A stretch of 64,000 nt of DNA, from assembly GCA_947629625.1 (NCBI GenBank), contig CANRES010000002.1, positions 1,652 to 65,651 on the forward strand. The letters run 5' to 3'. How positions within the stretch are numbered: the stretch's first letter is position 1; every line of letters starts with the position of its first letter. This stretch comes from an uncultured Clostridia bacterium. GTDB lineage: Bacteria; Bacillota; Clostridia; TANB77; CAG-508. The notes under the pieces were generated by a model. That model was not told the DNA's origin. It saw nothing but the letters and a program-made list of their open reading frames with translations, and did no database searches. The position numbers were made by a program, and so were the translations under genes. Below, one piece after another: positions 11,341-44,606 of this stretch.

Positions 11341-11586
11341 TTATTGCTGTAATTCATTTTTTACTTGATTAATTTCATCTTGTGTAGCAGGTTGAGCAGG
11401 TTTATAATATCCCTTAGTTTGAGCAACTTTAAATAATTCAAATTGAAAACTTTCACAAGTATTTCTTATTTGTTGAATAGTCTGTCTAAGTTGCATATTT
11501 TCAGTTTCATTAATAACACCTTGATAAGTAGTAAGTTCAGATTTTGTAGAATCTAAAATATCATTAACCATAGTTTTTTCTTCCAT
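11341..11586 (-). CDS. CotF-like (coat_F family) small spore coat protein
   Basis: 81-aa helical protein in tandem with a second small paralog-like ORF; sporulation context nearby. Confidence 0.45.
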   Translation of the reverse strand: MEEKTMVNDILDSTKSELTTYQGVINETENMQLRQTIQQIRNTCESFQFELFKVAQTKGYYKPAQPATQDEINQVKNELQQ

Positions 11587-11595
11587 AAAAACCTC

Positions 11596-11784
11596 CTAAT
11601 TATTTAAAAAAGACATTAATTTTTGTTTAGTATTCAATGCATCTTGAGCAGACTTCGTAAAAATTTGTTTAATTTGAGGGTCTACACATTGATTAGCATA
11701 GTTGTTTAATTTTTCATAAGAAGTCTCATGAACACCAACTAAATGTCTTATATTTTGTAATTCAACTTGACTAAGATTAGCCAT
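11596..11784 (-). CDS. CotF-like small spore coat protein, 62 aa
   Basis: Small ORF immediately upstream of the 81-aa ORF; same size class and composition. Confidence 0.4.
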   Translation of the reverse strand: MANLSQVELQNIRHLVGVHETSYEKLNNYANQCVDPQIKQIFTKSAQDALNTKQKLMSFLNN

Positions 11785-11957
11785 AAAAATTCATTCCTTT
11801 CCGGTACAAATTTAGAATAAAAAATAAATAAGATTTTTTTTTAAACCAATTACCTTTAATATACTTAATATAATTATGTACAAAATAAAAAATGAATATA
11901 CAAAAACATTAACAAATTAAAAATATAGAGCATATTATATGAAAAGGAGGTATTAAA

Positions 11958-12500
11958 ATGTATACAGATTATAATAATTTTAATCAATTTTACGGATTCA
12001 ACGACTATAACATGAGGGATTATAATATGAGAGATTATAATCTAAGAAGCACTGAACAAATGAAAAATACATATGATGATGAATTAATTTCATTAAATCA
12101 AGCAATAGAACTAATAAGAACATCAGTAGGAAATGAAAGAGAAGATGAATTGTTTTATGATAATTTAATAAAAATAGCACCAACAGATAAAGAGAAGGAT
12201 ATTATAAAAAGTATTAGAGATGACGAGAAAAAACATAATAAAATATTAAGAGAGTTATATTACAATTTTACAGGTCAAATGATACCACCTGATACTTTAA
12301 ATCAAAGTACAGAAAGTAAATTAACATATAAGGAATTATTAGAAAAAGCATTATTTGGAGAATTAGATGCAGTTGTAAAATATAGAAAAATATTAGGAAA
12401 AATGCCTAGTGGAGATAGTTATATCTTACTAATGTCAATAATGACAGATGAAATAAAACATGCGAATAAATATAATTTTTTAATAGCAACTGCAAAATAA
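11958..12500 (+). CDS. Ferritin-like/rubrerythrin-like domain protein, possibly spore-coat associated
   Basis: Two E-x2-H motifs (DDEKKHNKIL, TDEIKHANKY) typical of a di-iron ferritin-like fold. Strong RBS aaaggagg. Upstream AC..N16..CATATTATA resembles a sigma-K promoter. Confidence 0.5.
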   Translation: MYTDYNNFNQFYGFNDYNMRDYNMRDYNLRSTEQMKNTYDDELISLNQAIELIRTSVGNEREDELFYDNLIKIAPTDKEKDIIKSIRDDEKKHNKILRELYYNFTGQMIPPDTLNQSTESKLTYKELLEKALFGELDAVVKYRKILGKMPSGDSYILLMSIMTDEIKHANKYNFLIATAK

Positions 12501-25419: not shown

Positions 25420-25459
25420 TTACAATTCACAGTTTAGATTAATTTATAATAGCAAAATA

Positions 25460-25510
25460 GCAGAAGTTTAATATAGTATTTTTTATATATTAAACTCCTG
25501 CATTTTTTTA
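25460..25510 (+). terminator. Rho-independent terminator after the M16 pair
   Basis: gcagaagtttaatata...tatattaaactcctgc stem followed by a T7 run. Confidence 0.6.
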
Positions 25511-25566
25511 TTGTATAGGAAAAATCGAAGATTTTTCTGTATACAAAAAGGTTAATTTAAATTGGG

Positions 25567-25836: not shown

Positions 25837-25992
25837 ATGTTAAATGATGATATTTGTAAAAAAAGAGATGAATTAAACAAAAGTATATTAGATGGAAAAG
25901 ATTACAAAATAATTTATCAATTGAGCGTAGAACTAGATGAATTAATTGCAAAATACTATAAAGAAGAAAAAGAAACAGTAATTTCTATATAA
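25837..25992 (+). CDS. Spo0E-like sporulation regulatory protein (51 aa); not in the ORF track
   Basis: MLNDDICKKRDELNKSILDGKDYKIIYQLSVELDELIAKYYKEEKETVISI. RBS aaaggaagtgg. The SxELDxLIxxYY motif is typical of Spo0E-family aspartyl-phosphate phosphatases. Confidence 0.5.
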   Translation: MLNDDICKKRDELNKSILDGKDYKIIYQLSVELDELIAKYYKEEKETVISI

Positions 25993-26033
25993 TAAATTAA
26001 TATATAAAAATGAGAAAAAATCTCTAAAACATA

Positions 26034-26061
26034 TTTACATTTTGAAAAAATATGGTATAAT
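26034..26061 (+). promoter_or_regulatory. Sigma-A-like promoter TTTACA-N16-TATAAT upstream of the AbiL-like pair
   Basis: Sequence match only. Confidence 0.35.
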
Positions 26062-26105
26062 AATTGAAGGAAAATATATAATAATTATATATTATGGAGG
26101 AAAAT

Positions 26106-27437
26106 ATGTTATTAGAATTTAAAATAAAAAATTACAAATCATTTTATAATGAAACTGTAATAAGCATGTTTGCAAATAGTGCAAAAAGAGATTATACAGA
26201 ACGTCTAATCAAAATAAATAAAACTAGTAATAAAAAAGTATTACCGTCAATGGTAATATATGGAGCAAACGCAAGTGGTAAAACTTCTATAATTTCAGCA
26301 ATAAATTTGCTTAAACAGATAATAATAAATGGAACAATAAAAAAACAAATAAAAAATAAAGAAATACAAGAATTGGATATATGCTCTTTTATACATGACA
26401 ATAAGAAAATGAATGAACCAATGCATTTAGAAATTACATTTAAAACAAAAAATTATATATATAATTATGCCTTAGATATAGTTGCAACATATTTAAAAAA
26501 GGATAGAAAAATAGTTAATGAAGAACTAAATATTGTAGAATTTAAAAACATTGGCACATCCATTAAAGAAACAAAAACTAATATTTTTAAGAGAAACGAA
26601 AATAGTGTAGAAATAAATAAAAACAAAGAAATTATGAATATATTAGAGAAAAAAGAAAATTTTATAGATGAAGCAAATAATTTAGAAAAAAGATTAAGCG
26701 AAAATTTAGATAAAGAAGATTTATTTTTAACAGCAGGATTTAAATCAATGATAAATCTAAAAATGTCAAATGATGTGTTAAATTGGTTTCAAGAACAACT
26801 AATAACAGTAGTTGATTTTAACGAAAAAGAACCCTTAGTAAATTTTAATGATGAAAATAGTGAAGACATAATTGTATATAGAAATAAAATGTTAGATAAA
26901 CTTATAAAAATTGCAGATTTTGGACCACAAGAATTTGGATATATCAAAGATAATAGTACAGGTAAATATACGTTAAATTCATTTTATACACCAAAGGGAT
27001 CTAAAGCAGGTATAATTATAAATTCTAAAACTATTGAATCAAAAGGTACACTAAAATTAATTGATTTTTGGATTACATTTATGGAATACTTTAAAAAAGG
27101 TGGAGTGTTTATACTAGATGAATTAGATTGTTCAATACATCCAGAATTAATAGGAGGAATTATAGATTTATTCAATAATAAAGATATTAACATTAATAAT
27201 TCTCAATTAATTTTTAATACTCATAACCCATTATATTTACAAAAAAGATTTTTTAGAAGAGATCAAATAATGTTTGTGGAAAAAGATGAAGAAACATATA
27301 TGAGTAGTACTTATAAATTATCAGATTTTGATTTAAGAAATGATGTTAATTATATGAAAAATTATTTTGAAGGAAAATTCGGAGCACTTCCTTTTATAGA
27401 TTTTGAGTCAACTCTTAATAAAGAAGGGGTTGATTAA
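26106..27437 (+). CDS. AAA_21/ABC-type ATPase, AbiLi-like abortive-infection component
   Basis: MLLEFKIKNYKSF..., Walker A GANASGKTS, Walker B FILDELD and H-loop near the C-terminus. 1-nt gap to the RloB-like partner. Confidence 0.7.
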   Translation: MLLEFKIKNYKSFYNETVISMFANSAKRDYTERLIKINKTSNKKVLPSMVIYGANASGKTSIISAINLLKQIIINGTIKKQIKNKEIQELDICSFIHDNKKMNEPMHLEITFKTKNYIYNYALDIVATYLKKDRKIVNEELNIVEFKNIGTSIKETKTNIFKRNENSVEINKNKEIMNILEKKENFIDEANNLEKRLSENLDKEDLFLTAGFKSMINLKMSNDVLNWFQEQLITVVDFNEKEPLVNFNDENSEDIIVYRNKMLDKLIKIADFGPQEFGYIKDNSTGKYTLNSFYTPKGSKAGIIINSKTIESKGTLKLIDFWITFMEYFKKGGVFILDELDCSIHPELIGGIIDLFNNKDININNSQLIFNTHNPLYLQKRFFRRDQIMFVEKDEETYMSSTYKLSDFDLRNDVNYMKNYFEGKFGALPFIDFESTLNKEGVD

Positions 27438-28013
27438 ATGATAAAAAGAGAATATAGATGTTTTTTTGAAGGGCAACAAGAAAAAATGTATTTTGAACAT
27501 GTAGCAAAGAAAATAAAGGAAGTTAATCCAATAGTAAGTATAAAATTTAAACCAGTAGAAAAATTAATTGTTTTAGAGAAAAGTTCAACAGATGTACCAA
27601 AAATAGCGGTATTTGATTATGATATGAATAAAATAGAATTTGAAAGAAAAATAAAGATATGCAGGAAAACTAATATTTTATATTCTAATCTTAATTTTGA
27701 TTTATGGTTATTATTACATAAAGTGAATTTTAGTAAAAATGTTCAACATAATGATGCATATAAAAATTTAATAATAAAAAATTTTAATTTAAGAGAAAAT
27801 TGCAATATAAAAACTAAAGCTAATATGGAAAAAATATTAGAGCAAATTGATATAAAAGATATAAAAAATGCAATAAAAAATTCTGAGCAAATAATGAATA
27901 ACAAATTAGAGGAAGATAAAATAACTATTAGAAAAAATTTCTATTATTATGAAAATCCTTCAATGAATATAAATGAATTTTTTAAAAGACTTTTTGAAGA
28001 AATAAAAGTATAA
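27438..28013 (+). CDS. RloB-like/AbiLii-like protein (Toprim-like), partner of the AAA_21 ATPase
   Basis: N-terminus EYRCFFEGQQEKMYFEH resembles the RloB CEGxxTExxYF motif; translationally coupled to the upstream ATPase. Confidence 0.6.
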   Translation: MIKREYRCFFEGQQEKMYFEHVAKKIKEVNPIVSIKFKPVEKLIVLEKSSTDVPKIAVFDYDMNKIEFERKIKICRKTNILYSNLNFDLWLLLHKVNFSKNVQHNDAYKNLIIKNFNLRENCNIKTKANMEKILEQIDIKDIKNAIKNSEQIMNNKLEEDKITIRKNFYYYENPSMNINEFFKRLFEEIKV

Positions 28014-28025
28014 TGTAGAAAAATG

Positions 28026-28054
28026 TTGAAAAATAAAAAATAATCATATATAAT
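28026..28054 (+). promoter_or_regulatory. Promoter TTGAAA-N17-TATAAT for pilin-like gene 1
   Basis: aaaatgTTGAAAaataaaaaataatcataTATAAT. Confidence 0.5.
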
Positions 28055-28086: not shown

Positions 28087-28464
28087 ATGGTAAAAAAAAT
28101 AAGCATATTTTTAATAGTAATAACATTATTATTAACTATGATACCAATAAAAACATATGCATCAGGTTTAGCAACAGAAATAATAGATCCATCAACATAT
28201 GGTGCAGGAATAGAATCAACTAGGGATTCATCACAAGTTTTGGCAATAGTAAACCCAATATTAGGTGCTGTATATTACATAGGAATTTTTATATCAGTTG
28301 GAGCACTTATATTAATAGGAATAAAATATATGATGGGAAGTATAGAAGAAAAAGCACAATATAAAGAAACCTTATTTCCATATTTAATAGGTGCAGTATT
28401 ACTATTTGGAGGAATAAATATACTAAGAATAATATATAACATAGTAATAAAAACGATAAAATAA
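28087..28464 (+). CDS. VirB2/TrbC-like candidate T4SS pilin, paralog 1 (signal peptide + 2 TM)
   Basis: Signal peptide ...TYASG, then TM1, then YMMGSIEEKAQYKETLFPY loop, then TM2. Confidence 0.55.
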   Translation: MVKKISIFLIVITLLLTMIPIKTYASGLATEIIDPSTYGAGIESTRDSSQVLAIVNPILGAVYYIGIFISVGALILIGIKYMMGSIEEKAQYKETLFPYLIGAVLLFGGINILRIIYNIVIKTIK

Positions 28465-28494
28465 AGTAATATAACTATATTTTTCAAAAAAATG

Positions 28495-28523
28495 TTGAAA
28501 TATTAAAAAAAATGTTGTATAAT
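28495..28523 (+). promoter_or_regulatory. Promoter TTGAAA-N17-TATAAT for pilin-like gene 2; same AAAATGTTGAAA -35 region as gene 1
   Basis: 12/12 identity of aaaatgttgaaa with 28020-28031. Confidence 0.5.
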
Positions 28524-28557
28524 TAATTAAAGTGTGATTTAATGGGAGATGAGATTA

Positions 28558-28959
28558 ATGAAAAAAAATTTAATAATACAAGTAATAACCATACTATTAA
28601 TAATCTCTACATTAATATTTTACATACCAACAATATCAAAAGCATCAATAATAGGAGATGCATTTGAAAATGGAGATGGCTTTTTACAAACACAACCAGA
28701 TCAAACTATTCAAGATATGGTTGATGATACCAAAATAATAAAAACATCAAAAGATATATATAATCTTTTAATGATAATTGCAATAGTAGTAGCATCAATA
28801 GTAGTACTAGTATTAGGAATACAATTTATGGCAGGTAGTGTAGAACAAAAAGCAAAAGTTAAAGAAATGCTAATGCCATTTGGAATAGGATGCGTAGTTA
28901 TATTTGGCTCACTAGTAATATGGCGAATAGTAATATCAGTAATGTCATCTATAATGTAA
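28558..28959 (+). CDS. VirB2/TrbC-like candidate pilin, paralog 2
   Basis: Same architecture: ...LGIQFMAGSVEQKAKVKEMLMPFGIG.... ATG at 28558 sits 9 nt after GGGAG; the track's 28549 start is too close to the RBS. Confidence 0.55.
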   Translation: MKKNLIIQVITILLIISTLIFYIPTISKASIIGDAFENGDGFLQTQPDQTIQDMVDDTKIIKTSKDIYNLLMIIAIVVASIVVLVLGIQFMAGSVEQKAKVKEMLMPFGIGCVVIFGSLVIWRIVISVMSSIM

Positions 28960-29032
28960 GTTTTTAATGTTTTCTTATTAGAGTATAAGAAAGTTAAAAT
29001 ATAAATAAAAGAATAAAAAAGGAGGAAAAAAT

Positions 29033-29452
29033 ATGAAAAAATCAGTAAAAATAATGTCTATATTAATGATAGCATTAATGGTAATATCTGTTGCATTACC
29101 TATATTTGCAACTACAATTGATGGAGTAGAAGTAAGACCAGATATGAGTTCAATACAAGGTTCAACAGCAGGTAATAGTTTATCAAAAGTATTAGGTGCA
29201 TTAAGATACATAGGAATATTTGCAGCAGTAGCAATTCTTATGGTACTTGGTATTAAATATATGATGGGAAGTGCAGAAGAAAAAGCAGAATATAAGAAAA
29301 CTTTAATACCTTATATGTTAGGTGCAATACTATTATTTGCAGCATCATTCATAGTAGGAATAATAGCAGATGCAACAAACAAAGTTACACAAACATCTTC
29401 ATTAATTGAAAGTGGAAAAGTTTTAGCATCAACAATAAAAGCATTAGTATAA
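29033..29452 (+). CDS. VirB2/TrbC-like candidate pilin, paralog 3
   Basis: ...LGIKYMMGSAEEKAEYKKTLIPYMLGAILLF...; RBS aaaggagg. Confidence 0.55.
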   Translation: MKKSVKIMSILMIALMVISVALPIFATTIDGVEVRPDMSSIQGSTAGNSLSKVLGALRYIGIFAAVAILMVLGIKYMMGSAEEKAEYKKTLIPYMLGAILLFAASFIVGIIADATNKVTQTSSLIESGKVLASTIKALV

Positions 29453-29461
29453 TATTAAAAG

Positions 29462-29495
29462 AAAGAAATTCCTTTATGGAATTTCTTTTTTTTTT
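29462..29495 (+). terminator. Rho-independent terminator after the pilin triplet
   Basis: gaaattcc-ttta-ggaatttc followed by T10. Confidence 0.75.
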
Positions 29496-29518
29496 GAAAA
29501 ATTTAACAAAACTACAAA

Positions 29519-29552
29519 AAAATACATTTAAAACAAAATGTATTTTTTTTTC
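29519..29552 (+). terminator. Second tandem terminator
   Basis: aatacattt-aaaacaa-aatgtatt followed by T9. Confidence 0.65.
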
Positions 29553-29560
29553 GATTTTTA

Positions 29561-29590
29561 TTTACAAATAACATTATTATTTGATATAAT
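29561..29590 (+). promoter_or_regulatory. Promoter TTTACA-N18-TGaTATAAT (extended -10) for the T4SS-like operon
   Basis: tttacaaataacattattatttgatataat. Confidence 0.5.
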
Positions 29591-29640
29591 ATATATGAGT
29601 TAAAATAGGTTTTTTATAAAAATACTAAGGAGGCGTTTAA

Positions 29641-29988
29641 ATGGGAACATATAACATACCTAGAAACGTTAAAGGAGAAGGAAGAATATTATATATATTT
29701 TCAAAAAAAGGTATCATATATACAATGGTAGGAGCATTAATAGGAACACCTTTTTATTTATTATTCAATTCAATAGGAATAACATTTGTAGGAGTAATAA
29801 TAATAATTCTTTTAGCATTAATAGGATTTATAATAGGAACATTTAAGGTACCAGAAACAACAGCATTTGAAATAACAAGAAAAACCGGCGGAGAAAATAT
29901 AGATGATGTAATAAAAAGAGCCTTCAAATTCTATAAAAATAGAAGAAGAATATATATCTATAAAGAGGAGGAAACAAAAGATGAGTAA
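29641..29988 (+). CDS. PrgI/VirB3-like small 2-TM conjugal transfer protein
   Basis: 115 aa with two central TMs; sits two genes upstream of the VirB4-like ATPase, as in pCF10 and Tn916-type loci. Confidence 0.55.
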   Translation: MGTYNIPRNVKGEGRILYIFSKKGIIYTMVGALIGTPFYLLFNSIGITFVGVIIIILLALIGFIIGTFKVPETTAFEITRKTGGENIDDVIKRAFKFYKNRRRIYIYKEEETKDE

Positions 29989-31273
29989 TAACGAATTAAC
30001 AAGTTTATTAACAACAATATTAATAGCAATGGTATTTGTATTATTTTTTCTAATAATGATATTTGTTTTCATAAAAATAAAAAATGATAAAAAGAAAAAG
30101 ATGCCGATGCAAACAGAAAATAAAGGAACAAATACAGCAACACAAGGATATAATAAACAATCAATTTTTAATTTTATGGAATTTGATAAAATTGAAGATA
30201 ATATGATAATTCAAAAAAACGGAACAAAATACTTAATGGTAGTTGAATGTCAGGGAGTAAATTATGATTTAATGTCAGGAATAGAAAAAACCTCAGTAGA
30301 AGAAGGCTTTCTACAATTTTTAAACACATTAAGACACCCAATACAAATATACACACAAACAAGAACAGTAAACTTAGAAAAAAGTATATCTACATATAAA
30401 TCTAGAATAGACCAACTAGAAGCAGATTTAAGAGCAAAAGAAGCAAATTATCAAGCAAAAGCAAAATCTGGAAGATATACAAAAGAACAACTAGATAAAG
30501 AATTTTATGAACTTACGAAACAAAGAAATCTATATGAATATGGAAGAGATGTAATCTTTAATACAGAAAGAATGAGTACAAATAAAAACGTACTAAACAA
30601 AAAATACTATATAATAATTCCATACTATCCAGAAGATTTAGGAAATAACAATTTTGATAAAGAAGAAATCAAAAACATAGCATTTTCTGAACTATACACA
30701 AGAGCACAATCAGTTATAAGAACGTTATCAGCATGTGGAATAAACGGAAAAATATTAGGCTCAAACTTACTTGCAGAACTATTATATGTAGCATATAATC
30801 GTGATGAAGAAGAAATATATGGACTTGATAAAGCAATAGCAGCAGGATATGACGAACTATATTCAACAGCACCAGATGTACTAGATAAGAAAATGAAGGA
30901 ATTAGATAAACAAATTGAACAAAAAGCAATGGATATGGCAAATGATGCAGTAATTCAAGCAAAATCAGATAAACAAAAGAGAATTGAAGAAAAAGAAAAA
31001 TCAATGAACGATTTGATATCACAAATGGCAAAATTAATTATAGAAGAAAACAAAACATTTGTAGGAGAAGATATTGCAGAAGCAGCAGTTGATAAAATAG
31101 ATGGTACAGAAGAACAAGAAGATATCGAAGAAATTGAAGAAGAAGAGGAAATAGCACCACCTAAAAAACGAGGAAGAAAAAAAGCAAGCACAGAAAATAC
31201 AGAAGAAGGAGGAAAAGTAAATGATGTCAAAGAAAAAAAGAAAACAACAAGAAGAACTACAAAGACAGCTTGA
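29981..31273 (+). CDS. Membrane-anchored coiled-coil protein of unknown function, with an acidic stretch and a basic KKRGRKK tail
   Basis: N-terminal TM (aa 8-32), long coiled-coil-like segments, C-terminal EEIEEEEEIAPPKKRGRKKAS.... Overlaps the virB4-like start by 53 nt. Confidence 0.5.
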   Translation: MSNNELTSLLTTILIAMVFVLFFLIMIFVFIKIKNDKKKKMPMQTENKGTNTATQGYNKQSIFNFMEFDKIEDNMIIQKNGTKYLMVVECQGVNYDLMSGIEKTSVEEGFLQFLNTLRHPIQIYTQTRTVNLEKSISTYKSRIDQLEADLRAKEANYQAKAKSGRYTKEQLDKEFYELTKQRNLYEYGRDVIFNTERMSTNKNVLNKKYYIIIPYYPEDLGNNNFDKEEIKNIAFSELYTRAQSVIRTLSACGINGKILGSNLLAELLYVAYNRDEEEIYGLDKAIAAGYDELYSTAPDVLDKKMKELDKQIEQKAMDMANDAVIQAKSDKQKRIEEKEKSMNDLISQMAKLIIEENKTFVGEDIAEAAVDKIDGTEEQEDIEEIEEEEEIAPPKKRGRKKASTENTEEGGKVNDVKEKKKTTRRTTKTA

Positions 31274-33188
31274 AACAAGAAATAGTATAGACATTAGCAT
31301 ACTAAAAAAGAAAACAATTAAAGATTTAATTGCACCATCTGGAATAGACGCTTCAAATATAGACCATTTAAAAATAATATCAAATACAAATAGATTTGCA
31401 AGAAGTTTCTTTGTATCAACACTACCTAGAATGTGTACGTTCCCAGAATTGTTTAGAGATATGTATATGTTTGGAGATATAAACACATCAATATATATAA
31501 ACCCAATACCAGAAGCAAGATCTCAAAACGAATTAAATAGAGTAATAAATGAACTAGAAACAGAAAGAATTGTAGCAGCAGATAGAGGAAATATAAATAG
31601 AGAAAGTACAGTATCTCAAAAAAGATTAGAAGCAGAAGAATTAAGAGACGAAATTGCAGCAGGATTTAATAAATTATTTGAAGCATCAATTGTTGCAACA
31701 CTATTTGCATACAGCCTAGAAGATTTGGACAAATACACAAAACTATTAGCAACAGAAATGTCAAAATCATTAGTTGGAGTAAAAAGTGCTTGGGGAATGC
31801 AAGAAGAAGCATTTAAATCTAATTTACCATTAATGAATGACCAAATAAAGAAAACACATACATTTGATAGACGTTCAATGGGAACAGTATTCCCATTCAC
31901 AACATCAGAAGTTGGACATCCAACAGGAATACCATTAGGATTTAATAAACAAACTGGAGTACCAATATTATTTGATAACTTCCACTCATCACTAACAAAC
32001 TATAACATGGTTATATTTGCAAAATCTGGTGCTGGTAAATCTGTTACAATGAAAACTTTAATATCAAGGTCAGCAGTATTAATGGGAATAGAAAGTTTAG
32101 CACTAGATGCAGAAGGTGAATATTCAATAGTTGCTGAAAGTTTAGGAGGAATTAATGTTGTATTAAGTCCAAATTCAAAAACAGTAATAAATTTATTTGA
32201 TATTGAATTAGAAACAGCAAAAGATGAAATAACAGGTAAAGAAAGACAAGTTTTAAATGTAGAAAATAAAGTAGAAGACGTAACACAAGCGCTACTTACA
32301 ATGGCAAGAGGAAGTACAAGAAGTCAAGAAGTAAATGAACTTACAAAACAAATAATTGCAGAAGCAGTAGCAGAAGAATATGCAAGATTAGGAATTACAA
32401 GTGATCCAAATAGCTTATATGTACAAAACAATACATTTGATGGAAATGCATTATATAAAGAAAAGAAAGAAATGCCTACAATTGGTAGTTGGTATAAACT
32501 AATAGAAAGAAAAGCAAAAGAAAATACAAATAAAGATTACAGTTTTCATTATAGTTACTTATTAAAAGTTATGAAACAATACATAAGAGCATATGATGGA
32601 CAAATGGCATATTTTGATGGACAATCTACATTTGATTTATTAGAGGGAGCACCTTTTATAAATCTAGATATATCACAACTAGAAGAAAGATTTGCAAGAC
32701 CATTAGCACAACAAATTCTATTATCATGGATTTGGGAAAAATATGTTAAGAAAAACAGTGAAGATAGAACAAAGGCTTCTAAAAAAAGAGTAATAGTAGA
32801 CGAAGCGTGGATGCTATTACCTTACCCAGAAGCAGTAGATTTCTTAAATACAATGGCTAGACGTGCAAGAAAAAGAAATGTATCATTAGCAATAATTTCA
32901 CAAAGATTTCAAGATTTTTATGAAAAACCAGAAGCACAAGCAGTATTAACATCTTCTGATACAAAACTATTTTTAGCACAAGATAAATCAGAAATACAAT
33001 ATTTAAAAGAAGTATTTAAACTAAGTGAAGGAGAAGCAGGATTTTTAGTAACTTGTTTAAAAGGAGAAGGATTATTAAAAGTTGGTGCAGATACAGCAAT
33101 ATTGCAAATTACACCAACAAAGAAGGAATTTGAATTTGTTGAAACAAATTTAAACAAATTGGTAGGAATGCGAAAAGCAAGAGAATAG
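31221..33188 (+). CDS. VirB4-family T4SS ATPase (TraE/TrsE/TcpF-like)
   Basis: Walker A FAKSGAGKSVTMKT, Walker B RVIVDEAWML. 655 aa, close to the size of the Gram-positive VirB4 homologues as I recall them (pIP501 TraE). Confidence 0.8.
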   Translation: MMSKKKRKQQEELQRQLETRNSIDISILKKKTIKDLIAPSGIDASNIDHLKIISNTNRFARSFFVSTLPRMCTFPELFRDMYMFGDINTSIYINPIPEARSQNELNRVINELETERIVAADRGNINRESTVSQKRLEAEELRDEIAAGFNKLFEASIVATLFAYSLEDLDKYTKLLATEMSKSLVGVKSAWGMQEEAFKSNLPLMNDQIKKTHTFDRRSMGTVFPFTTSEVGHPTGIPLGFNKQTGVPILFDNFHSSLTNYNMVIFAKSGAGKSVTMKTLISRSAVLMGIESLALDAEGEYSIVAESLGGINVVLSPNSKTVINLFDIELETAKDEITGKERQVLNVENKVEDVTQALLTMARGSTRSQEVNELTKQIIAEAVAEEYARLGITSDPNSLYVQNNTFDGNALYKEKKEMPTIGSWYKLIERKAKENTNKDYSFHYSYLLKVMKQYIRAYDGQMAYFDGQSTFDLLEGAPFINLDISQLEERFARPLAQQILLSWIWEKYVKKNSEDRTKASKKRVIVDEAWMLLPYPEAVDFLNTMARRARKRNVSLAIISQRFQDFYEKPEAQAVLTSSDTKLFLAQDKSEIQYLKEVFKLSEGEAGFLVTCLKGEGLLKVGADTAILQITPTKKEFEFVETNLNKLVGMRKARE

Positions 33189-33205
33189 TAAGGAGGAAAA
33201 GCCAA

Positions 33206-36200
33206 ATGAAGCTTTTTACTAAGAAAAATTTAATTCAAAAGATGACAATAGTTTTGGTAATTCTAATGCTATTTAATTTTATAATGCCAAATTTCGTAAG
33301 AGCAGAAACAGCGATAGAAACAGCAGGAAAAGTAATTTTCACACCAGTTAGGGGTTTCTTAGTAATGTGTGGAGATGGTCTTATGACTGGGCTACAATAT
33401 TTACTAAAAACAAACGAAAAAGCAGTAATACCATATAGTGATCAAATAGAAGAAAGTAAGCAATTTATTGGGGAAGAAGATGATAGAAATTATTTTGAAT
33501 ATTATCTGGGAGATATTGTACTAGATGTATATGGTAATGCTACGGGTCAAGATAAACCTAATTTTAAATATACACCAAAATTTATTTTTGAAAATAAAAT
33601 AAAATCATTTGATATAAATTTTATTAGCCCATCAAGAGCAAACACTAATGGAGAAGCAAAAGAAAATGAAAATAGTGAAGAAAATCAATCAAGTTATTCT
33701 GATGAAACATGGTATGAAGATTATGTATATACAGTAGAAAAATGCCAAGAAAAATATAATACTTCAACTGATGAAACAGAAAAAGGTGTAGCAAGAACAG
33801 TATTACGTCGTTTAGGAGCATGGGATGATACAACAAATAATGTAGGTTATACAGATGAAACCGCTAAAAATGCTGTAAGTGAACTTTCACAAAGATATTA
33901 TAATGGTGCAACTATGTATGAAATGTTAGGAGCAGATCCAACCTCAAAAGATGCAACAATGAAAAAATATGTTGAATTTCTAGATAGTGGAATAGGTACA
34001 TATGTAATTGGAACTGTTGCTGAATATCATAAAGTAGCAGGAAATGAAACAAAAGAAACATTAGATTATGATGCAATAGCACCAGTAAATGCACTACATG
34101 ATATGATAGCAACATGGTATAAAATATTAAGAAATATTGCATTAATATTTTTACTATCAATTTTAGTATATATAGGAATTAGAATAATACTATCAAGTAC
34201 AGCAGCAGATAATGCAAAATATAAAAAAATGCTTGTAGATTGGGTAGTTGCATTATGTATTTTATTTGCATTACATTATATAATGGCAGGTATAAATGGG
34301 GCAGTTAATATGGTTGTAGATGCATTTACACCATCAAATAGTTCTGATACTGATGCTATATTTGGAAATGTAAGAACACAATTAATGTCTGAAAATTTAT
34401 CTGACCAACTTTTTTATACAGTATTATATCTAGTATTGGTTATCTATACATTAGTATTTACATTTTATTATTTGAAAAGGGTTGTTTATGCAGCATTTTT
34501 AACATTAATTGCGCCATTAGTAGCATTAACTTACCCATTAGATAGAATGGGTGATGGAAAATCACAAGCATTTAATATGTGGTTAAAGGAATACATTGCG
34601 AATGTAATTATTCAACCAGTGCATTTATTGATATATACTGTATTAATAGGTTCTGTACTTTCATTATCAGTAAAAAATCCATTATATGCAATTGTTGTAA
34701 TGGGAGCAATGATGCCAGCAGAAAAATTCATTAGAGAGATGTTTGGATTAAATAGCCAAAAAGGATTAAGCCCAGCAGGAAGCTTTGCAGGTGGAGCACT
34801 TGCTGCATCAGCAATGAATAAATTATTATCAAAACCACCTAGAATGCATCCTCGTGGTGAACATGGTAAATCAAAAGATAATGGCAGTGAAAACGAAAAT
34901 GAAACAAAACGAAATAAAATTAAAATGAAAGATAGTATGTCTGATATAGCAAATTCAATAGTAGGACAAGATGTGCCAGATGTAACCAATAATAGAATAA
35001 AAGATAACACAAATAGCACAGAAAATAAACCAGATGTAGATAATGGAGATTTTCCAGATAGTAGAGAACTTGATAATCAAGAGCAAGCAAAAAATGAAGA
35101 TATATACTTACCAAATAATAAAGATACAAGTAATATGGATGAAATAGCTTCACCATCACAAGAAGAAATTGATGCAGCTTTAAATCCACCTATGGATGAT
35201 GATAGAGTTACTATGGATGAAATAGCACCACCATCACAAGAAGAAATTAATGCGACTTTAAATTCACCTATGGATAAAAATACAAGTACTATGGATGAAA
35301 TAGCACCACCACCACAAGAAGAAATTGATGCAACTTTAAATCCACCTATGCATAATAACAGACAAATCAACAGTCAAGAAGATAAATTACAGCAAGGAAA
35401 CAATAACTTGAACATGCCTAATAAAGCAACTATACCAATGAGTAAAGCAGAACAAAAACAAGCAAAGAAAACATTGAAGAAACAAAAAAGAGCTGCTCAA
35501 TATGCAGCATCAAAAAGATATTATACTAAATTAACTAAACAAAGATTAAGAAAATTAGGAAAATTAGGTAAAGGTTTAGCAAGAGGAGCATTAAAAACAG
35601 CAGGTGCTGCAACGGGAATAGCATTAGGTGCAACAGCAGGAATAGTAGGAGGAATTGCTACTGGTGATGTAGGAAATGCATTAAAATTTACTGGAGCTGG
35701 TGCATTAGCAGGTGCAAAATTTGGTTCTGTAATAGGTGATGATGTTTATAATATTGGAGCAAGAGGTGGATCTGGTGTAGCGAGTGCAATTAATAGTCAA
35801 AAAGAAATGAAGCAAATGTGGCAAAACGACTTATACAATACTAATGAAGAATATAGAAAAAAAGTGGATCAAAAAGAAGCAAAGAAATTAATAAAATCAG
35901 CAGAAACAACAGCAATGATACAACAAAGATTTGGAAGGGGTAAAGTAAAAGAAGCACAAAAGGCTATGATGGAATATAATGAACGAGGAATAGATAATGT
36001 TGATACAATGCTTAACTGTTTTGGACTAGAACAAGGAATAGATAGACATGGAAATAGATTTACTGAACCGGGTAGTATCGATCGTAATCAAGCAATTATG
36101 GCAGGAAGAATTGCAGAACAATATGATGTAAATAATGCTTCTGGCAGAAAATCTAGTAAAGATGAATTAGAGCATCAATTAGCAAATAGCGTATATAATG

Positions 36201-36448
36201 GATCTTTTGATGGTAAAGAATATACAATAACAAGAGACCAAGCATTTGATAGAGTAAAAGGAAATGTAAATAATATTATGAAACTAGCGGATATGGCACA
36301 AGGAATTGATACAAAACATGCAGGCTTAGCAGATCAATTAGAAGAATCAAATAAAGCTAAACAAAAACGTACTAGAGCAAAAGAAGTTAGAGAGAGAATG
36401 GAAGTTGAAAATGAAGTTGCAAGAGAAAATAACAACAAAAACAACTAA
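33206..36448 (+). CDS. VirB6/TrbL-like polytopic membrane protein with a large N-terminal extracytoplasmic domain, three tandem 26-aa Pro-rich repeats, a Gly/Ala-zipper segment and a C-terminal soluble domain
   Basis: Signal/TM at the N-terminus, about 6 TMs at aa 300-510, repeats MDEIAPPSQEEIDATLNPPM x3, glycine zipper GAATGIALGATAGIVGGIATG. Confidence 0.6.
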   Translation: MKLFTKKNLIQKMTIVLVILMLFNFIMPNFVRAETAIETAGKVIFTPVRGFLVMCGDGLMTGLQYLLKTNEKAVIPYSDQIEESKQFIGEEDDRNYFEYYLGDIVLDVYGNATGQDKPNFKYTPKFIFENKIKSFDINFISPSRANTNGEAKENENSEENQSSYSDETWYEDYVYTVEKCQEKYNTSTDETEKGVARTVLRRLGAWDDTTNNVGYTDETAKNAVSELSQRYYNGATMYEMLGADPTSKDATMKKYVEFLDSGIGTYVIGTVAEYHKVAGNETKETLDYDAIAPVNALHDMIATWYKILRNIALIFLLSILVYIGIRIILSSTAADNAKYKKMLVDWVVALCILFALHYIMAGINGAVNMVVDAFTPSNSSDTDAIFGNVRTQLMSENLSDQLFYTVLYLVLVIYTLVFTFYYLKRVVYAAFLTLIAPLVALTYPLDRMGDGKSQAFNMWLKEYIANVIIQPVHLLIYTVLIGSVLSLSVKNPLYAIVVMGAMMPAEKFIREMFGLNSQKGLSPAGSFAGGALAASAMNKLLSKPPRMHPRGEHGKSKDNGSENENETKRNKIKMKDSMSDIANSIVGQDVPDVTNNRIKDNTNSTENKPDVDNGDFPDSRELDNQEQAKNEDIYLPNNKDTSNMDEIASPSQEEIDAALNPPMDDDRVTMDEIAPPSQEEINATLNSPMDKNTSTMDEIAPPPQEEIDATLNPPMHNNRQINSQEDKLQQGNNNLNMPNKATIPMSKAEQKQAKKTLKKQKRAAQYAASKRYYTKLTKQRLRKLGKLGKGLARGALKTAGAATGIALGATAGIVGGIATGDVGNALKFTGAGALAGAKFGSVIGDDVYNIGARGGSGVASAINSQKEMKQMWQNDLYNTNEEYRKKVDQKEAKKLIKSAETTAMIQQRFGRGKVKEAQKAMMEYNERGIDNVDTMLNCFGLEQGIDRHGNRFTEPGSIDRNQAIMAGRIAEQYDVNNASGRKSSKDELEHQLANSVYNGSFDGKEYTITRDQAFDRVKGNVNNIMKLADMAQGIDTKHAGLADQLEESNKAKQKRTRAKEVRERMEVENEVARENNNKNN
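35135..35368 (+). repeat. 3 x 78-bp in-frame tandem repeat inside the VirB6-like gene
   Basis: atggatgaaatagc(t/a)(t/c)cacca(t/c)cacaagaagaaatt... occurs at 35135, 35213 and 35291. Confidence 0.8.
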
Positions 36449-36478
36449 AAATAATAACTAAATTTAATGGGGGCAAAA

Positions 36479-36979
36479 ATGTTAGGAACACATCCAATTG
36501 TTAGATATTTAAATCAAAATAGAAAACAAATATTTACAGTAATTATAGCAGTAGCAATATTTTTCCTAATATTAAGAATTTTAAATAATATAGAAGAAAG
36601 AAAAATAAAACAAGAACAAGAAAAAACAAATACATATTATACAGAAATAACAAATGCAAACGAACATGCAAAAATAATAAAACAATTTCTAGAATATTGT
36701 AAGAGTGGAGATGCAAGTAATGCATATAAATTACTTGCATCCAAAACAAAAGAAGAAAAATATCAAAATCAAACTGAATTTAACAATAACTATATTTTAA
36801 AATTCTTTTCAGAAAACAAAAACTACACAATAACATACAATTCACAAAATAATAATCAATATTACTATATTATAAAAATAACTAATGACATAATATCAGC
36901 GGGAAAAGTTGATAAAGAACCAGTAATACAAGATTTTATAATTACTAATGAAAATGGAGAAGACAAAATTATAATTTAA
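36479..36979 (+). CDS. Membrane-anchored single NTF2-like domain protein (VirB8/TcpC-like candidate)
   Basis: N-terminal TM; ...CKSGDASNAYKLLASKTKEEKYQNQTEF... is the NTF2/SnoaL-like pattern shared with the 38.5-39.8 kb protein. Confidence 0.45.
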   Translation: MLGTHPIVRYLNQNRKQIFTVIIAVAIFFLILRILNNIEERKIKQEQEKTNTYYTEITNANEHAKIIKQFLEYCKSGDASNAYKLLASKTKEEKYQNQTEFNNNYILKFFSENKNYTITYNSQNNNQYYYIIKITNDIISAGKVDKEPVIQDFIITNENGEDKIII

Positions 36980-37130
36980 TTTTTAATAAATAAGGGAGAG
37001 GTTGCATTAATATTATGCAACCTAATTTTAAAAATAATATTTATATATGTATTCTACATTGCAAAAAAATAAAAATTTATATCAAGAGTATAAATATAAG
37101 TATTAAAAAGGAAGACAAGAAGGTGAAAAA

Positions 37131-38477
37131 ATGGACTTTTTAGAACAAGCAAAAAGTGCATTCAAAAATGCATATTTAACAGGAATAAAAAAGAAATTAA
37201 TAATGTTAGGAATAGGAATACTAGTATTTATAATATTAATAACAATACTAGTAGGTGTAATATTAGTAGAAGACGAAGAAAGCCAAATTGGAAATTATAA
37301 TAGTTTAGCATCATACTCATTTTGGTGGCCAATAGGAAGTAGAGAAACAACATTAGATGCAGATGGAAATGAATACGCAATTAAAGAGCCATCAGCAATA
37401 ACTATAAGTAGTGATTACAAAATAAGAAATCAAGAAAGACCAGACCATGACGGAATAGATATAAATAGTGATGATGCTCAAGATGGAGAAAAAAAAGGAG
37501 AAGGTTACCATTATATTATTGCATCAAAAGATGGAACAGTAATTACATCTCATTTTTCAGGTCAAAATGGTGTAGAAGGTTCAGCAGGAGAATACATAGC
37601 AATAGACCATGGAGATGGATTTGTTACAAAATATATGCATATGTATGAAGGAAGTCGTACAGTAGAGGTAGGAGATACAGTAAAACAGGGACAAATTATT
37701 GGTATTATGGGAAATACAGGCTATTCTACAGGAGCACACTTACACTTTCAAATAGAACTTGATGGGGAACCAGTAGATCCTTTGCAATATGTAAGTGCAG
37801 AATTCCCAAGAGGTGGATCAAGCATTGATCCATTTACAACAAGTATTTCAAGGGAAGACTTTATACAATGTATTCAACAATATTCACAAGAAGCAAATTA
37901 TCAAATGAATATGGCACAATATGCAGGAGAATTTTATGATATATGCACAGAAAAAGGAGTAAGTGCTGAATTAGCATTTGCACACTCATGTTTAGAAACA
38001 GAATTTGGAACATATTTTATAGCACAAAATAACTATTTTGGTTATGCAGCATATAATAGTAATCCAAATTCAGCAACAAGTTATTCAACACCACAAGAAT
38101 CAATAAGAAGTTATTGTGATTGGGTAATAAACAATGCAACAATGGACACAAGTGCATATCAAGCAAACCTTCAAAGAGCGGAAGAATTATCACCATATAA
38201 TTCTATGCTAGTAGGCACACCAGAAACAAATGTATATGTATTATATATTAGATATGCTCAACTAGACGCTACACATGAAGGAGACTATGCAACAATAGAT
38301 CGTAACAATATAAATAGTGTTAAATATTTAGGAACATATTATTTCACATATTATATGTATGGAGAAATGTGTAACCATTTACCGGGAGAACCTACATCAG
38401 ATCAAGAAAAGGCAGATTATGCAGTATATTCTACAAATAAAAGAATAGAAATAATAAATAGTATATTTGGAAAATAA
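37131..38477 (+). CDS. Membrane-anchored bifunctional peptidoglycan hydrolase: M23 peptidase + glucosaminidase/FlgJ-like domain (functional VirB1 analogue)
   Basis: M23 motifs HDGIDI and HLHFQIELDGEPVDP; C-terminal ...ELAFAHSCLETEFG... is glucosaminidase-like; N-terminal TM. Confidence 0.7.
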   Translation: MDFLEQAKSAFKNAYLTGIKKKLIMLGIGILVFIILITILVGVILVEDEESQIGNYNSLASYSFWWPIGSRETTLDADGNEYAIKEPSAITISSDYKIRNQERPDHDGIDINSDDAQDGEKKGEGYHYIIASKDGTVITSHFSGQNGVEGSAGEYIAIDHGDGFVTKYMHMYEGSRTVEVGDTVKQGQIIGIMGNTGYSTGAHLHFQIELDGEPVDPLQYVSAEFPRGGSSIDPFTTSISREDFIQCIQQYSQEANYQMNMAQYAGEFYDICTEKGVSAELAFAHSCLETEFGTYFIAQNNYFGYAAYNSNPNSATSYSTPQESIRSYCDWVINNATMDTSAYQANLQRAEELSPYNSMLVGTPETNVYVLYIRYAQLDATHEGDYATIDRNNINSVKYLGTYYFTYYMYGEMCNHLPGEPTSDQEKADYAVYSTNKRIEIINSIFGK

Positions 38478-38493
38478 ATTAGAGGTGGGGGAA

Positions 38494-39837
38494 TTGAAAA
38501 AAATAAAAATACTCATAATTATTACTAGTATAATTTCTATATTACTTATATTTGCAATTATTATATTAAATATTAATAGTAAGGGAGAAGAAAATAATAA
38601 TAATTTAAATATTAACAATAACATAAGTAATATGATAGGTAATACAACAAGTAATATAGTAAATAATGTACAAGGTAATTTAATAAATAATAACGTACAA
38701 GAAAATAACATAAATATAGGGAGTACAGAAATAAAACCACAGCCTGTAAAATCAAGAGAAGATTTTTACACAGTAAAATCTTGTATTGATGAATATATTA
38801 ATTATATTGTAGCAAACAATAATGAAGCATTATATAACATATTAGATAAATATTATCTTGACAAAAATAATATAGATAAAAATAATATTTTAGAAAAATT
38901 AGTAAAAATAAATACATACCAAGTATTTAATCCAGAAAGAATGAATTATGTTGAATTAAATAACAAACAAATATATATGGTTTATGGAAAAATTAGAGAG
39001 GATAAACTAAATGAAAGAGCAAATGAGGTTGATTTTAATTTAACAGTAACAATAAATAAACAAAACAATAGTTATTCAATAATACCAGAAATAATTAATG
39101 AAACAACATCATATTCTTTAATTGGAAATAACACAAGAACTAAATATAATTTATATTCAACTGTTAATATAGATAATAAAACAATGGCAAATATTTATTT
39201 TGTAGATTATAAAACAAAATTACTATATAATCTTCAAAACGCATACGATTTATTAGATGAAAATTATTCTAAAAAAAGATTTAATGGTTATTCAAATTTT
39301 TATCAGTATGTACAAGACAACATAAATAAAATCAATAGAGCAAACTTAACAAAATATTCAATAACAAATGAAGGAAATAATACAATTTTTACATGTATAG
39401 ATCAATATAATAATTATTATATATTTGAAGAAACTGCAATAATGCAATATAAGGTTATGTTAGATAATTACACTATTGACAGTAATGAATTTGTAACAAA
39501 ATATAGTTCAGCATCATTTCAAGAAAAAATGGAATTAAATATACAAAAATTCATAAAAATGATAAATTCAAAAGATTATGAAAATGCTTATAATCTTTTA
39601 AATACAGAATTTAAAAATAATAATTTTGCAGACTTACAACAATTTATAAACTATGTAACATCATCATTTTATAACTACAATGATGTAAAATTTAATACTT
39701 TTTCAACACAAGGTGATATTGGAATATATGAAATTAATATTAATGGAGTAGTAAATGATATTGATGTTACACAAATAAAAACTATCATAATGAAACTAGG
39801 CACTGGAACAGATTTTGAAATATCATTTGATATATAG
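38494..39837 (+). CDS. Membrane-anchored Asn-rich protein with two tandem NTF2-like domains (TcpC/VirB8-like candidate)
   Basis: TM at the N-terminus; two ...(E/N)AY(N)(I/L)L... domains (NNNEALYNILDKYY..., KDYENAYNLLNTEFK...). TTG at 38494 after agaggtggggg is preferred over the track's overlapping 38467 start. Confidence 0.45.
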   Translation: MKKIKILIIITSIISILLIFAIIILNINSKGEENNNNLNINNNISNMIGNTTSNIVNNVQGNLINNNVQENNINIGSTEIKPQPVKSREDFYTVKSCIDEYINYIVANNNEALYNILDKYYLDKNNIDKNNILEKLVKINTYQVFNPERMNYVELNNKQIYMVYGKIREDKLNERANEVDFNLTVTINKQNNSYSIIPEIINETTSYSLIGNNTRTKYNLYSTVNIDNKTMANIYFVDYKTKLLYNLQNAYDLLDENYSKKRFNGYSNFYQYVQDNINKINRANLTKYSITNEGNNTIFTCIDQYNNYYIFEETAIMQYKVMLDNYTIDSNEFVTKYSSASFQEKMELNIQKFIKMINSKDYENAYNLLNTEFKNNNFADLQQFINYVTSSFYNYNDVKFNTFSTQGDIGIYEININGVVNDIDVTQIKTIIMKLGTGTDFEISFDI

Positions 39838-39846
39838 GGAGGAAAA

Positions 39847-40443
39847 ATGGAAGAAAAAAATATTAATGAAATAAATAAAGAAATATTACAATTCAAAAAA
39901 GATATAGAAGAAAATATAAAACAAGCAAATAATCAAAATCAAGAAAACAACTCAGAGGAAAACGAGGAATTAGAACTTACAGAAATATTAAATATAACAT
40001 ATTATGATGAATTTGATTTTAAAACGAAATTTAAGGATGTAATATTAATGTTAGAAGATGTATATATTGTAGAATTAGAAAAATCAAATTCTACAACTTA
40101 TGAAATATACACAAAAGATGCAATTCATAAAATAGCACAAATAGATATAGAAGGAAAAATAACATTTATAGATAGAGCAATAGAAGATAATACAACAATA
40201 GAAGAAATGAAAAAATTAAATGAAGATAAAAAAACTATATCATATACAAAAGAAGAATTAGACGAATTAGAAGAAGGTTCAAAAAAGGAAATAGATAAAG
40301 AAAAAAATGAAGAAGGAACAAATCCAGATGTGAACTTAAATGATATATCAGATTCTGCAAGAGAGAAAAAAGAAGAAATGGACAAAGAAAATGACAGAGA
40401 AAGAACATTAGATGAAAACGTAAGAAAATACTATGAAAATTAA
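39847..40443 (+). CDS. Highly acidic hypothetical protein (198 aa), last gene of the operon
   Basis: E/D/N-rich; RBS gggaggaaaaatg. Confidence 0.45.
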   Translation: MEEKNINEINKEILQFKKDIEENIKQANNQNQENNSEENEELELTEILNITYYDEFDFKTKFKDVILMLEDVYIVELEKSNSTTYEIYTKDAIHKIAQIDIEGKITFIDRAIEDNTTIEEMKKLNEDKKTISYTKEELDELEEGSKKEIDKEKNEEGTNPDVNLNDISDSAREKKEEMDKENDRERTLDENVRKYYEN

Positions 40444-43348: not shown

Positions 43349-44606
43349 ATGAAAAGTTACATAGTAGAAGGAGGAAAAAAACTAGAAGGAGAAACCTATG
43401 TGTCAGGCTCTAAGAATGCATCACTACCAATAATAGCATCATGTATACTAAATAAAGGAATAACAAAACTATACAACGTACCAAATATTCACGATACAAA
43501 AGTAATGTTTGAAATTTTAAAATATTTAGGTTGCAAAATCAAGAAGAATAATGGTAAAATAATAATAGATTCCACAAAAGTTGAAAAATTTGAAATACCA
43601 GAACACATGATGAGAGAAATGAGGTCATCAGTAATACTTGCAGGAGCATTAATAGGAAGATTAAAAAAAGCAACATTCTCATATCCACGGAGGATGTGAC
43701 ATAGGAACAAGACCAATAGATCTACATTTAAAAGCATTTCAAAATTTAGGAATAAATATTGAAGAAAATGCTGGATTTATTAGGTGTAATTGTGATAAAA
43801 TAGTAGGAACAGAAATCTCATTAGATTTTCCAAGTGTAGGAGCAACAGAAAACTCTATGCTAGCAGCAGTATTAGCAGAAGGAACAACAACAATAAACAA
43901 TGCAGCAATGGAACCAGAAATAATAGACTTGCAAAACATATTAAATAAAATGGGAGCAAATATAAGTGGAGCAGGAAGCAATATTATTACAATAAAAGGA
44001 GTAGAAAAACTAAAAAATACAAGTTACAAAATAATGCCAGATAGAATAGAAGCAGGAACTATATTATGTTGTGTAGCAGTAACAGGAGGAAAAGTAAACT
44101 TAAAAGAAGTAATACCAGAACACTTAACACCAGTATTACACAAATTAGAAGAATGTGGTTGCAAAATAGAAACAACAAAAAATAGTATAATGTTACAAGC
44201 ACCAAAAAAAATGAAAAGTATAGACATAAAAACAATGCCATACCCGGGCTTCCCAACAGATATGCAATCAGTATTTGCAAGTATGTTATGTACAACAAAA
44301 GGAACATCAATAGTAATAGAAAATATATTTGAAAATAGATACAAATATACAAACGAACTAAAAAGAATGGGAGCAAAAATTACAATAGAAGGCAGAAGCG
44401 CTATAATAAAAGGGGTAAGAAAACTTACTGCAACAAATGTAAAAGCAACAGATTTAAGAGGAGGAGCAGCATTAGTTGTAGCAGCATTAAATGCAAAAGG
44501 AAAAACAAAAATAGAAAACATAGAATATATACTTAGAGGATATGAAAATCTAGATAAAAAATTAAATAACTTAGGAGCAAATGTAAAAATTAAAGAAGGT
44601 GAATAA
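43349..44606 (+). pseudogene. murA: UDP-N-acetylglucosamine 1-carboxyvinyltransferase gene interrupted by a +1 frameshift (extra C near 43688)
   Basis: Frame 2 reads ...KKATFSYPRRM*. Frame 0 from 43680 reads HIHGGCDIGTRPIDLHLKAF.... Deleting c in tatccaCggagga restores ...FSYPGGCDIGTRP.... Confidence 0.7.

Follow-up and report, generated by a model that had tools for sequence, protein, structure and literature searches.

The gene pair at 26106 to 28013 of the window, which is the whole 64,000-nucleotide stretch of DNA that was analysed, very probably constitutes an AbiL-type anti-phage cassette. The cassette would encode an AbiLi ATPase and an AbiLii Toprim nuclease, would have its own promoter, and would be unrelated to the T4SS-like locus beside it. 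Every AbiL feature that can be tested in sequence is present, and the pair is a moderately divergent new member of the AbiL class. The defence phenotype, the roles of sensor and effector, the trigger and the substrate are all presumed from analogous systems. The cassette and its borders include the following features:

25837 to 25992, plus strand: Spo0E-like gene (PF09388, 3e-8), the host neighbour at the left of the insertion site, outside the module.
25999 to 26105, plus strand: 5' region of the cassette, with a conserved upstream element, a promoter-like site and the Shine-Dalgarno sequence GGAGG.
26106 to 27437, plus strand: abiLi, encoding a 443-aa ATPase (ABC-type AAA_21, Rad50/SMC-like) that is presumably the sensor or regulator.
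27438 to 28013, plus strand: abiLii, encoding a 191-aa RloB-family Toprim nuclease, the presumed effector.
28011 to 28054, plus strand: right junction, where the first pilin gene retains its native promoter-like site (TTGAAA-17 nt-TATAAT, 28026-28054).

The longest ORF of the ATPase extends from 26094 to 27437 on the plus strand, and would encode 447 aa from the first ATG. The Shine-Dalgarno sequence GGAGG (26096-26100) is located 5 nt before the ATG at 26106; whereas the ATG at 26094 has no ribosome-binding site. An exact-protein look-up of the 447-aa version returned no record, and the 443-aa form was recovered instead, as a 100% identical product in public assemblies (P0101; gene call in contig L001). 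The AbiLi protein is therefore likely to be the 443-aa product that starts at 26106. The preliminary description of this DNA had already given 26106 as the start, which is right; but its length of 447 aa belongs to the longer ORF. It had also reported an intergenic gap of 1 nt, whereas the stop codon of abiLi (TAA, 27435-27437) directly touches the ATG of abiLii (27438), and the gap is 0 nt. This abutting stop and start make translational coupling plausible. In addition, a purine-rich site (AAGGGG) precedes abiLii by 8 nt.

The two genes are adjacent and co-oriented in the order abiLi, abiLii, with one promoter-like site upstream, and the same arrangement is common to all the related loci whose context was read. 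The motifs quoted previously were all found again, including the Walker A (GANASGKTS) and Walker B (ILDELD) of the ATPase, and the N-terminal EYRCFFEGQQEKMYFEH of the 191-aa protein. Both ORFs are far beyond chance, with Pfam and PADLOC matches well over threshold, hundreds of homologues, and dN/dS values of 0.18-0.36.

Profile searches were performed for both proteins. AbiLi matched PF13304 (AAA_21) with an E-value of 2.9e-23 and 83.9 bits (gathering score 27). AbiLii matched PF13707 (RloB) with 1.4e-11 and 45.4 bits (gathering score 31.5), and PF13707 was the only family in the Pfam scan of this 191-aa protein. In the PADLOC search, the AbiLi profile (PDLC02335) was the best among 33 matches of the ATPase (1.5e-75, 252 bits); the next-best match was a generic AAA_21-like AriA profile (6e-25), far under the AbiLi score. 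The AbiLii profile was the sole PADLOC match of the second protein (9.5e-12). The Pfam and PADLOC checks proposed in the preliminary description were thus positive for both proteins, and its reading of an AbiL-like two-gene module, composed of an AAA_21 ATPase and an RloB-like Toprim protein, is upheld by matches above threshold. The NCBIfam search of both proteins gave nothing over the cutoff. At least 100 homologues of AbiLii were found, and PF13707 was present in every one among the matches listed. Identical copies aside, the closest proteins in the collection searched share 77% (ATPase) and 68% (RloB-like) identity.

The gene order is the same as that of AbiL from Lactococcus lactis pND861 and of the PADLOC class, in which an AAA_21 ABC ATPase is followed by an RloB Toprim protein of ~190 aa. 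The AbiL of Lactococcus confers phage resistance and acts after transcription of the c2-type (Ceduovirus) phages (Deng 1999, as cited in PMC13064643). A pair in the Lactococcus prophage proPhi7, annotated as ‘abortive phage resistance protein’, scored 254 and 64 bits with the PADLOC AbiLi and AbiLii models, respectively; the AbiLi in this study scored 252 bits against the 254 bits of the prophage protein. The two AbiLi proteins share 28% identity over the full length (BLASTP, E 7e-27). AbiLii is more divergent from its lactococcal counterpart, and its PADLOC score was 43.9 bits, compared with 64-96 bits for other AbiLii proteins. The hhalign comparison of the AbiLii-clade profile with the lactococcal partner gave a probability of 92.6%, with the motifs EG..E, FDYD and WLLLH aligned, the last one in the form (D/E)xWLLLH. 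AbiLii represents a divergent RloB subclade, which is characterized by the motifs EGQQE, FDYD and NFDLWLLLHK. Unlike the AbiL of pND861, which is located on a dairy plasmid, the cassette is chromosomal in a MAG of uncultured gut Clostridia.

AbiL has been classed with the ABC-ATPase and Toprim systems (PMC11464382). Among these, PARIS also has a split AAA_15/21-family ABC ATPase and a separate Toprim nuclease, and falls in the same defence-ATPase tree (PMC11464382). PARIS is likely to be a functional analogue, with a sensor ATPase and a released nuclease. However, the effector of PARIS is the DUF4435 (PF14491) protein AriB; whereas the effector here is an RloB (PF13707) protein, and the AriB model gave no PADLOC match for the 191-aa protein. 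Among solved structures, the OLD enzymes (class 1, P2 Old; class 2, GajA) are closest in fold to both the Toprim region and the ATPase head, and their similar pattern of acidic residues fits two-metal catalysis. OLD and GajA carry both domains on one polypeptide, whereas the ATPase and the Toprim protein are encoded by two genes here. Unlike Gabija, no UvrD-like helicase partner (GajB) was found adjacent to the pair.

The RloA/RloB proteins of Campylobacter jejuni share the Pfam families and the pair architecture of AbiLi and AbiLii. The pair might therefore be read as an RloA/RloB-type accessory of a restriction-modification (R-M) system, or as a toxin-antitoxin addiction module that stabilises the neighbouring DNA, rather than as a stand-alone abortive infection system. 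The name of PF13707 comes from the RloB of Campylobacter type I R-M loci, and the annotation RloA was found for one plasmid-borne homologue of the ATPase. Moreover, the AbiLii of Fusobacterium alone is toxic in E. coli (PMC3985639). However, the pair is not embedded between hsd genes as it is in C. jejuni. The window ORFs that were scanned all have core functions, with neither hsd nor other R-M genes among them, and R-M genes are likewise absent next to the pair in the five other contexts. With regard to addiction, AbiLi in trans did not neutralise the AbiLii of Fusobacterium or act as an antitoxin in the one toxicity test available, in which the lactococcal AbiLii was nontoxic (PMC3985639). 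The neighbouring locus is also stably retained in relatives that have no pair. An R-M accessory or an addiction module is thus quite unlikely, and the AbiL-type cassette is the preferred reading.

The pair is a horizontally mobile module. Both genes recur together in at least five further chromosomal contexts, and wherever the context was read, the AbiLii homologue directly follows an AAA_21 gene. For example, the pair adjoins a tyrosine integrase and a HEPN-ApeA gene in one context, lies between ABC/FtsX and FeoAB genes in another, and adjoins a PBP5 gene and the gene for a small helix-hairpin-helix (HHH) protein in a third. The contigs of these three contexts came from assemblies of rabbit-gut metagenomes (ENA ERZ2724xxxx and ERZ2729xxxx). 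The pair was also found in a variable island with CBASS (SMODS, E2, 2TM) or ThsB-TIR/DUF6414 genes. Other homologous pairs are located on the Clostridium estertheticum plasmid pCF005-D, on seven IMG/VR contigs, and after the lysin gene in the Lactococcus prophage (proPhi7). The tblastn search of AbiLii against plasmids gave no match.

The mobile unit is ~2.0 kb in size, and comprises an upstream element, a promoter, abiLi and abiLii. The DNA homology (~77-78%) with the cassettes of three other loci (L004, L007 and L010) extends from 25987/25999 to 28001/28013 and then ends, so that the homology to other contexts stops at the stop codon of abiLii. The promoter-like site (TTTACA-16 nt-TGgTATAAT, 26034-26061) had a scan score of 11/12 with an extended -10 TG. 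The -35 box, the extended -10 and a ~35-nt element that precedes the -35 box are all kept in the cassettes from four other genomic contexts. The GC content of the cassette is 0.21, compared with 0.26 for the window, and this is the sole GC break. The sequence from 28011 to 28054 is of host origin and outside the cassette; the promoter-like site of the first pilin gene survives there, just 3' of the right junction. No intrinsic terminator was predicted around the pair, and therefore read-through from abiLii could reach the pilin genes. The search for tRNA genes was negative, and the Rfam search of the whole window returned nothing.

The terminal-repeat search around the cassette revealed no inverted repeats of the IS type; all its matches were AT-rich and close to chance. 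The left end of the cassette and the target at the right junction are alike at 22 of 31 positions (counted by hand from the alignment, in DNA of ~79% A+T), which may serve as a weak lead with regard to insertion. From this likeness and the conserved ~35-nt upstream element, the cassette could have been inserted by recombination at a short sequence common to the left end and the target. Moreover, the trigger or the substrate of the AbiLii subclade could be different from those of PARIS and OLD. The joint reading, in which the RloB subclade is carried by a recombinase-free 2-kb cassette among AT-rich gut Clostridia, with homology-driven insertion and a distinct trigger or substrate, is a long shot.

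The insertion site was compared among relatives. The neighbouring M16 peptidase was scanned with one genome per species, and 80 loci of uncultured gut Clostridia were obtained, which include rabbit, chicken and human MAGs, as well as Clostridium sp. CAG:780 and CAG:245. The tblastn search detected neither AbiLi nor AbiLii in any of the relatives' loci fetched (0/80); whereas the order M16a, M16b, Spo0E-like, pilins, PrgI, TraC-like and VirB4 was shared at this site by 37 species representatives. The Spo0E-like gene lies between the M16 peptidase and pilin genes in most of the relatives without AbiL. The closest relative (L018) shares ~94% nucleotide identity over 5.6 kb on the left and ~89.5% over 4.5 kb on the right. 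L018 contains the T4SS-like cluster and no AbiL, and at its empty site only 81 nt separate the Spo0E-like gene from the first pilin gene. The window sequence from ~26000/26022 to 28011 is absent from L018, and from 28012 on the window can be aligned to the empty site. The ~2.0 kb that is missing in L018 (about 26000-28013) coincides with the cassette, which other genomes share at ~78% identity. Judging from these alignments, AbiL is an independent, small and strain-variable insertion, flanked by the Spo0E-like gene and the promoter of the first pilin gene.

The preliminary description had taken the position of the pair to support the 25.4-40.5 kb block being one accessory island. In such an island, the pair and the T4SS-like genes would travel together, for example as cargo of an integrative conjugative element. 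The pair is indeed directly upstream of the pilin, PrgI and VirB4 genes, and mobile elements often carry defence genes. The T4SS-like cluster is also absent at this site in five relatives, which suggests some presence/absence variation. However, the 37 representatives and the empty site of L018 separate the cluster from the pair, and the homology to the cassettes of other genomes stops exactly at the pair. VirB4 is also more conserved (median identity 83.5%) than the flanking peptidases M16b (64%) and M16a (56%), and its identity co-varies with that of M16b (r = 0.60). Searches for an integrase, a relaxase or a coupling protein were negative over the window, including 28-40.5 kb, and significant flanking repeats were not found either; the GC break is confined to the cassette. 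The remaining window is core chromosome, including DnaB, MetRS, GdpP, TilS-like, FtsH, MurA-like, FtsQ, FtsA, FtsZ and PBPs. The T4SS-like cluster is therefore a lineage-conserved chromosomal locus and not accessory cargo; the single island, which had been proposed from the position of the pair, is exceedingly improbable.

A functional tie between the AbiL-type cassette and the T4SS-like pilus is conceivable but unsupported; it might consist, for example, in defence against phages that depend on the pilus, together with read-through into the pilin operon. Clustering of the ORFs in the variable spacers of the relatives revealed no clear defence hotspot. By eye, motifs in these spacer ORFs suggested an lgt-like gene, AAA_14/DUF4143-like ATPases and secreted proteins.

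The PDB sequence searches of AbiLi and AbiLii gave no match, and therefore fold searches were needed. The AlphaFold model of AbiLii (pLDDT 93.9) has a Toprim beta-alpha topology, in which strand beta-1 leads to E11-E15 and strand beta-3 to D60xD62. The top four Foldseek hits of AbiLii were the C-terminal regions of class 2 OLD (6nk8, 6njv, 6njx; E 2e-3), and its nearest solved folds are the Toprim regions of OLD and GajA (6nk8, 6njv, 8u7i, 6p74). The lactococcal AbiLii was likewise reported to be closest to the C-terminal regions of class 2 OLD in a 2026 review (PMC13064643). The AF2 model of AbiLi had a pLDDT of 82, and its top folds include Rad50, SMC heads, Septu PtuA, the retron I-A ATPase, the OLD of Thermus scotoductus and GajA (6p74, 8u7i).

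The invariance of catalytic residues was judged over 27-29 diverse homologues. The invariant residues of AbiLi include: the Walker A G53-K59, the signature E311-S312-x-G314-T315, the Walker B D338-E339, the D-loop D341, and H373. Those of AbiLii are G12, Q14, E15, D60, D62, D88, W90, H94 and K95 (29 homologues, 35-66% identity). In the OLD of Burkholderia pseudomallei, the residues E400/E404, D455/D457 and T506/E508 coordinate two metals (PMC6755086). The E-x3-E, DxD and NxD motifs of AbiLii would mirror these three groups of residues.

The dN/dS values were calculated against four cassettes in other genomes, and were 0.18-0.21 for abiLi and 0.31-0.36 for abiLii. Both genes are intact and under purifying selection. 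An inactive relic, or a housekeeping ABC ATPase beside an unrelated small ORF, is scarcely credible. In favour of such a reading, the closest non-identical proteins are rather distant, and the host genome is reduced and very AT-rich, where long spurious ORFs are rare and pseudogenes occur (such as a frameshifted murA-like gene); however, both ORFs are intact with all the catalytic motifs conserved, their dN/dS values are well below 1, the promoter and ribosome-binding site are conserved, a membrane or substrate-binding partner is absent, and the match of AbiLi to the Pfam ABC_tran is negligible (E 0.85). The caution of the preliminary description, that the ATPase might prove to be a housekeeping ABC component, was not borne out, with neither a transporter partner nor another housekeeping role apparent. 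Four readings were rejected: a housekeeping ABC transporter component, an R-M-linked RloAB, a toxin-antitoxin module that stabilises the T4SS-like locus, and the cargo of a single island.

As an AbiL-type cassette, the pair might work as follows. The abiLi and abiLii genes would be co-transcribed from the cassette promoter. In uninfected cells, AbiLi may hold or gate the AbiLii nuclease, and it might sense an infection cue, by analogy with PARIS, P2 Old and Gabija. For example, the AriA ATPase of PARIS senses a phage protein and frees the Toprim tRNase AriB (PMC11464382). P2 Old is an abortive, ATPase-gated Toprim tRNase, which is activated by phage replication structures (bioRxiv 10.64898/2026.07.10.737580). 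In Gabija and class 2 OLD, DNA is nicked or cleaved by the nuclease, and this activity depends on metals. The AbiLii nuclease would then be released or activated in an ATP-dependent manner. It may cleave nucleic acids by two-metal catalysis with E11/E15, D60xD62 and D88, and its target might be either tRNA, as for PARIS and Old, or DNA, as for GajA and class 2 OLD. Cleavage by AbiLii would arrest the infected cell, which amounts to abortive infection. A PARIS-like sequestration is only a tentative model, since AbiLi in trans failed to neutralise the toxic AbiLii of Fusobacterium and the lactococcal AbiLii was nontoxic.

The AbiL pair itself is an ordinary, routine defence module. The T4SS-like locus is a more unusual feature than the pair, and merits separate judgement. 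The source lineage belongs to the uncultured, reduced-genome gut Clostridia, and the pair is a clear-cut case, found in nature, of a minimal defence cassette (~2.0 kb), whose empty site is defined in a relative with ~90-94% nucleotide identity. Moreover, it adds a divergent RloB subclade to the group of ABC-ATPase and Toprim systems.

Upstream of the AbiL genes lie two non-coding features, and the second also occurs in the AbiL loci of other contigs (L004, L007 and L010; coordinates are those of each contig):
25454-25515, inverted repeat with 22-nt arms (86% complementary) and a 10-nt loop, followed by a T-run
25999-26033, element of about 35 nt, TATAAAAATGAGAAAAAATCTCAAAAACATA; L004 8540-8575, L010 8537-8572, L007 ~8550-8585

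The inverted repeat and its T-run lie 3' of the M16b stop codon, and are probably the terminator of the M16 operon. The consensus terminator scan made no call at this repeat, probably because of its AT-rich stem. The ~35-nt element lies just 5' of the AbiL cassette promoter, next to its -35 box, and is conserved there across four distinct genomic contexts; candidate roles are an operator, an UP element and a recombination site.

One related context of the AbiL pair, found in contigs L013-L015, is a textbook variable defence island. Downstream of the pair is the following gene:
L013-L015, ~10900-12240, second AAA_21 ATPase gene (about 442 aa)
This gene has no RloB partner, and 3' of it is an exchangeable site, occupied by genes of CBASS, of ThsB-TIR/DUF6414 or of the metallo-beta-lactamase fold.

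In the relatives' M16 loci without AbiL (L019-L091), the spacers that separate M16b from the Spo0E-like gene, and that gene from the first pilin gene, range from ~65 nt to ~2.5 kb across species. The spacer ORFs, identified by eye from sequence motifs alone, include an lgt-like gene in about 15 loci, AAA_14/DUF4143-like ATPases in L021 and L026, and secreted E/K-rich proteins; an ORF in L076 looks, also by eye, foreign in composition.

Two further features lie downstream of the AbiL cassette:
28087-40443, T4SS-like cluster
43349-44606, murA-like gene of the EPSP_synthase family, broken in two by a +1 frameshift near 43690

In the murA-like gene, frame 0 terminates at ...FSYPRRM* and reading resumes in the next frame with GGCDIGTRPIDLH...; the gene is a pseudogene, or else the MAG was misassembled here.

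The T4SS-like cluster encodes three TrbC/VirB2-type pilins, a PrgI/VirB3-like protein, a TraC-like protein and a VirB4-like ATPase, together with a 1080-aa protein and a hydrolase with M23 and glucosaminidase domains; no relaxase, coupling protein or integrase was detected in it by Pfam. Of roughly 55 loci (counted by hand) that reach far enough downstream, 37, each from a different species representative of this uncultured Clostridia lineage, have the cluster at one and the same chromosomal position. In five relatives, PBP5 directly follows the Spo0E-like or pilin-like gene, and the cluster is therefore missing there. Among the relatives' loci, the median identity of VirB4 (83.5%) is higher than that of the flanking M16 peptidases (64% and 56%). 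The cluster appears to be a T4SS-like apparatus that is maintained by vertical descent and does not serve conjugation.
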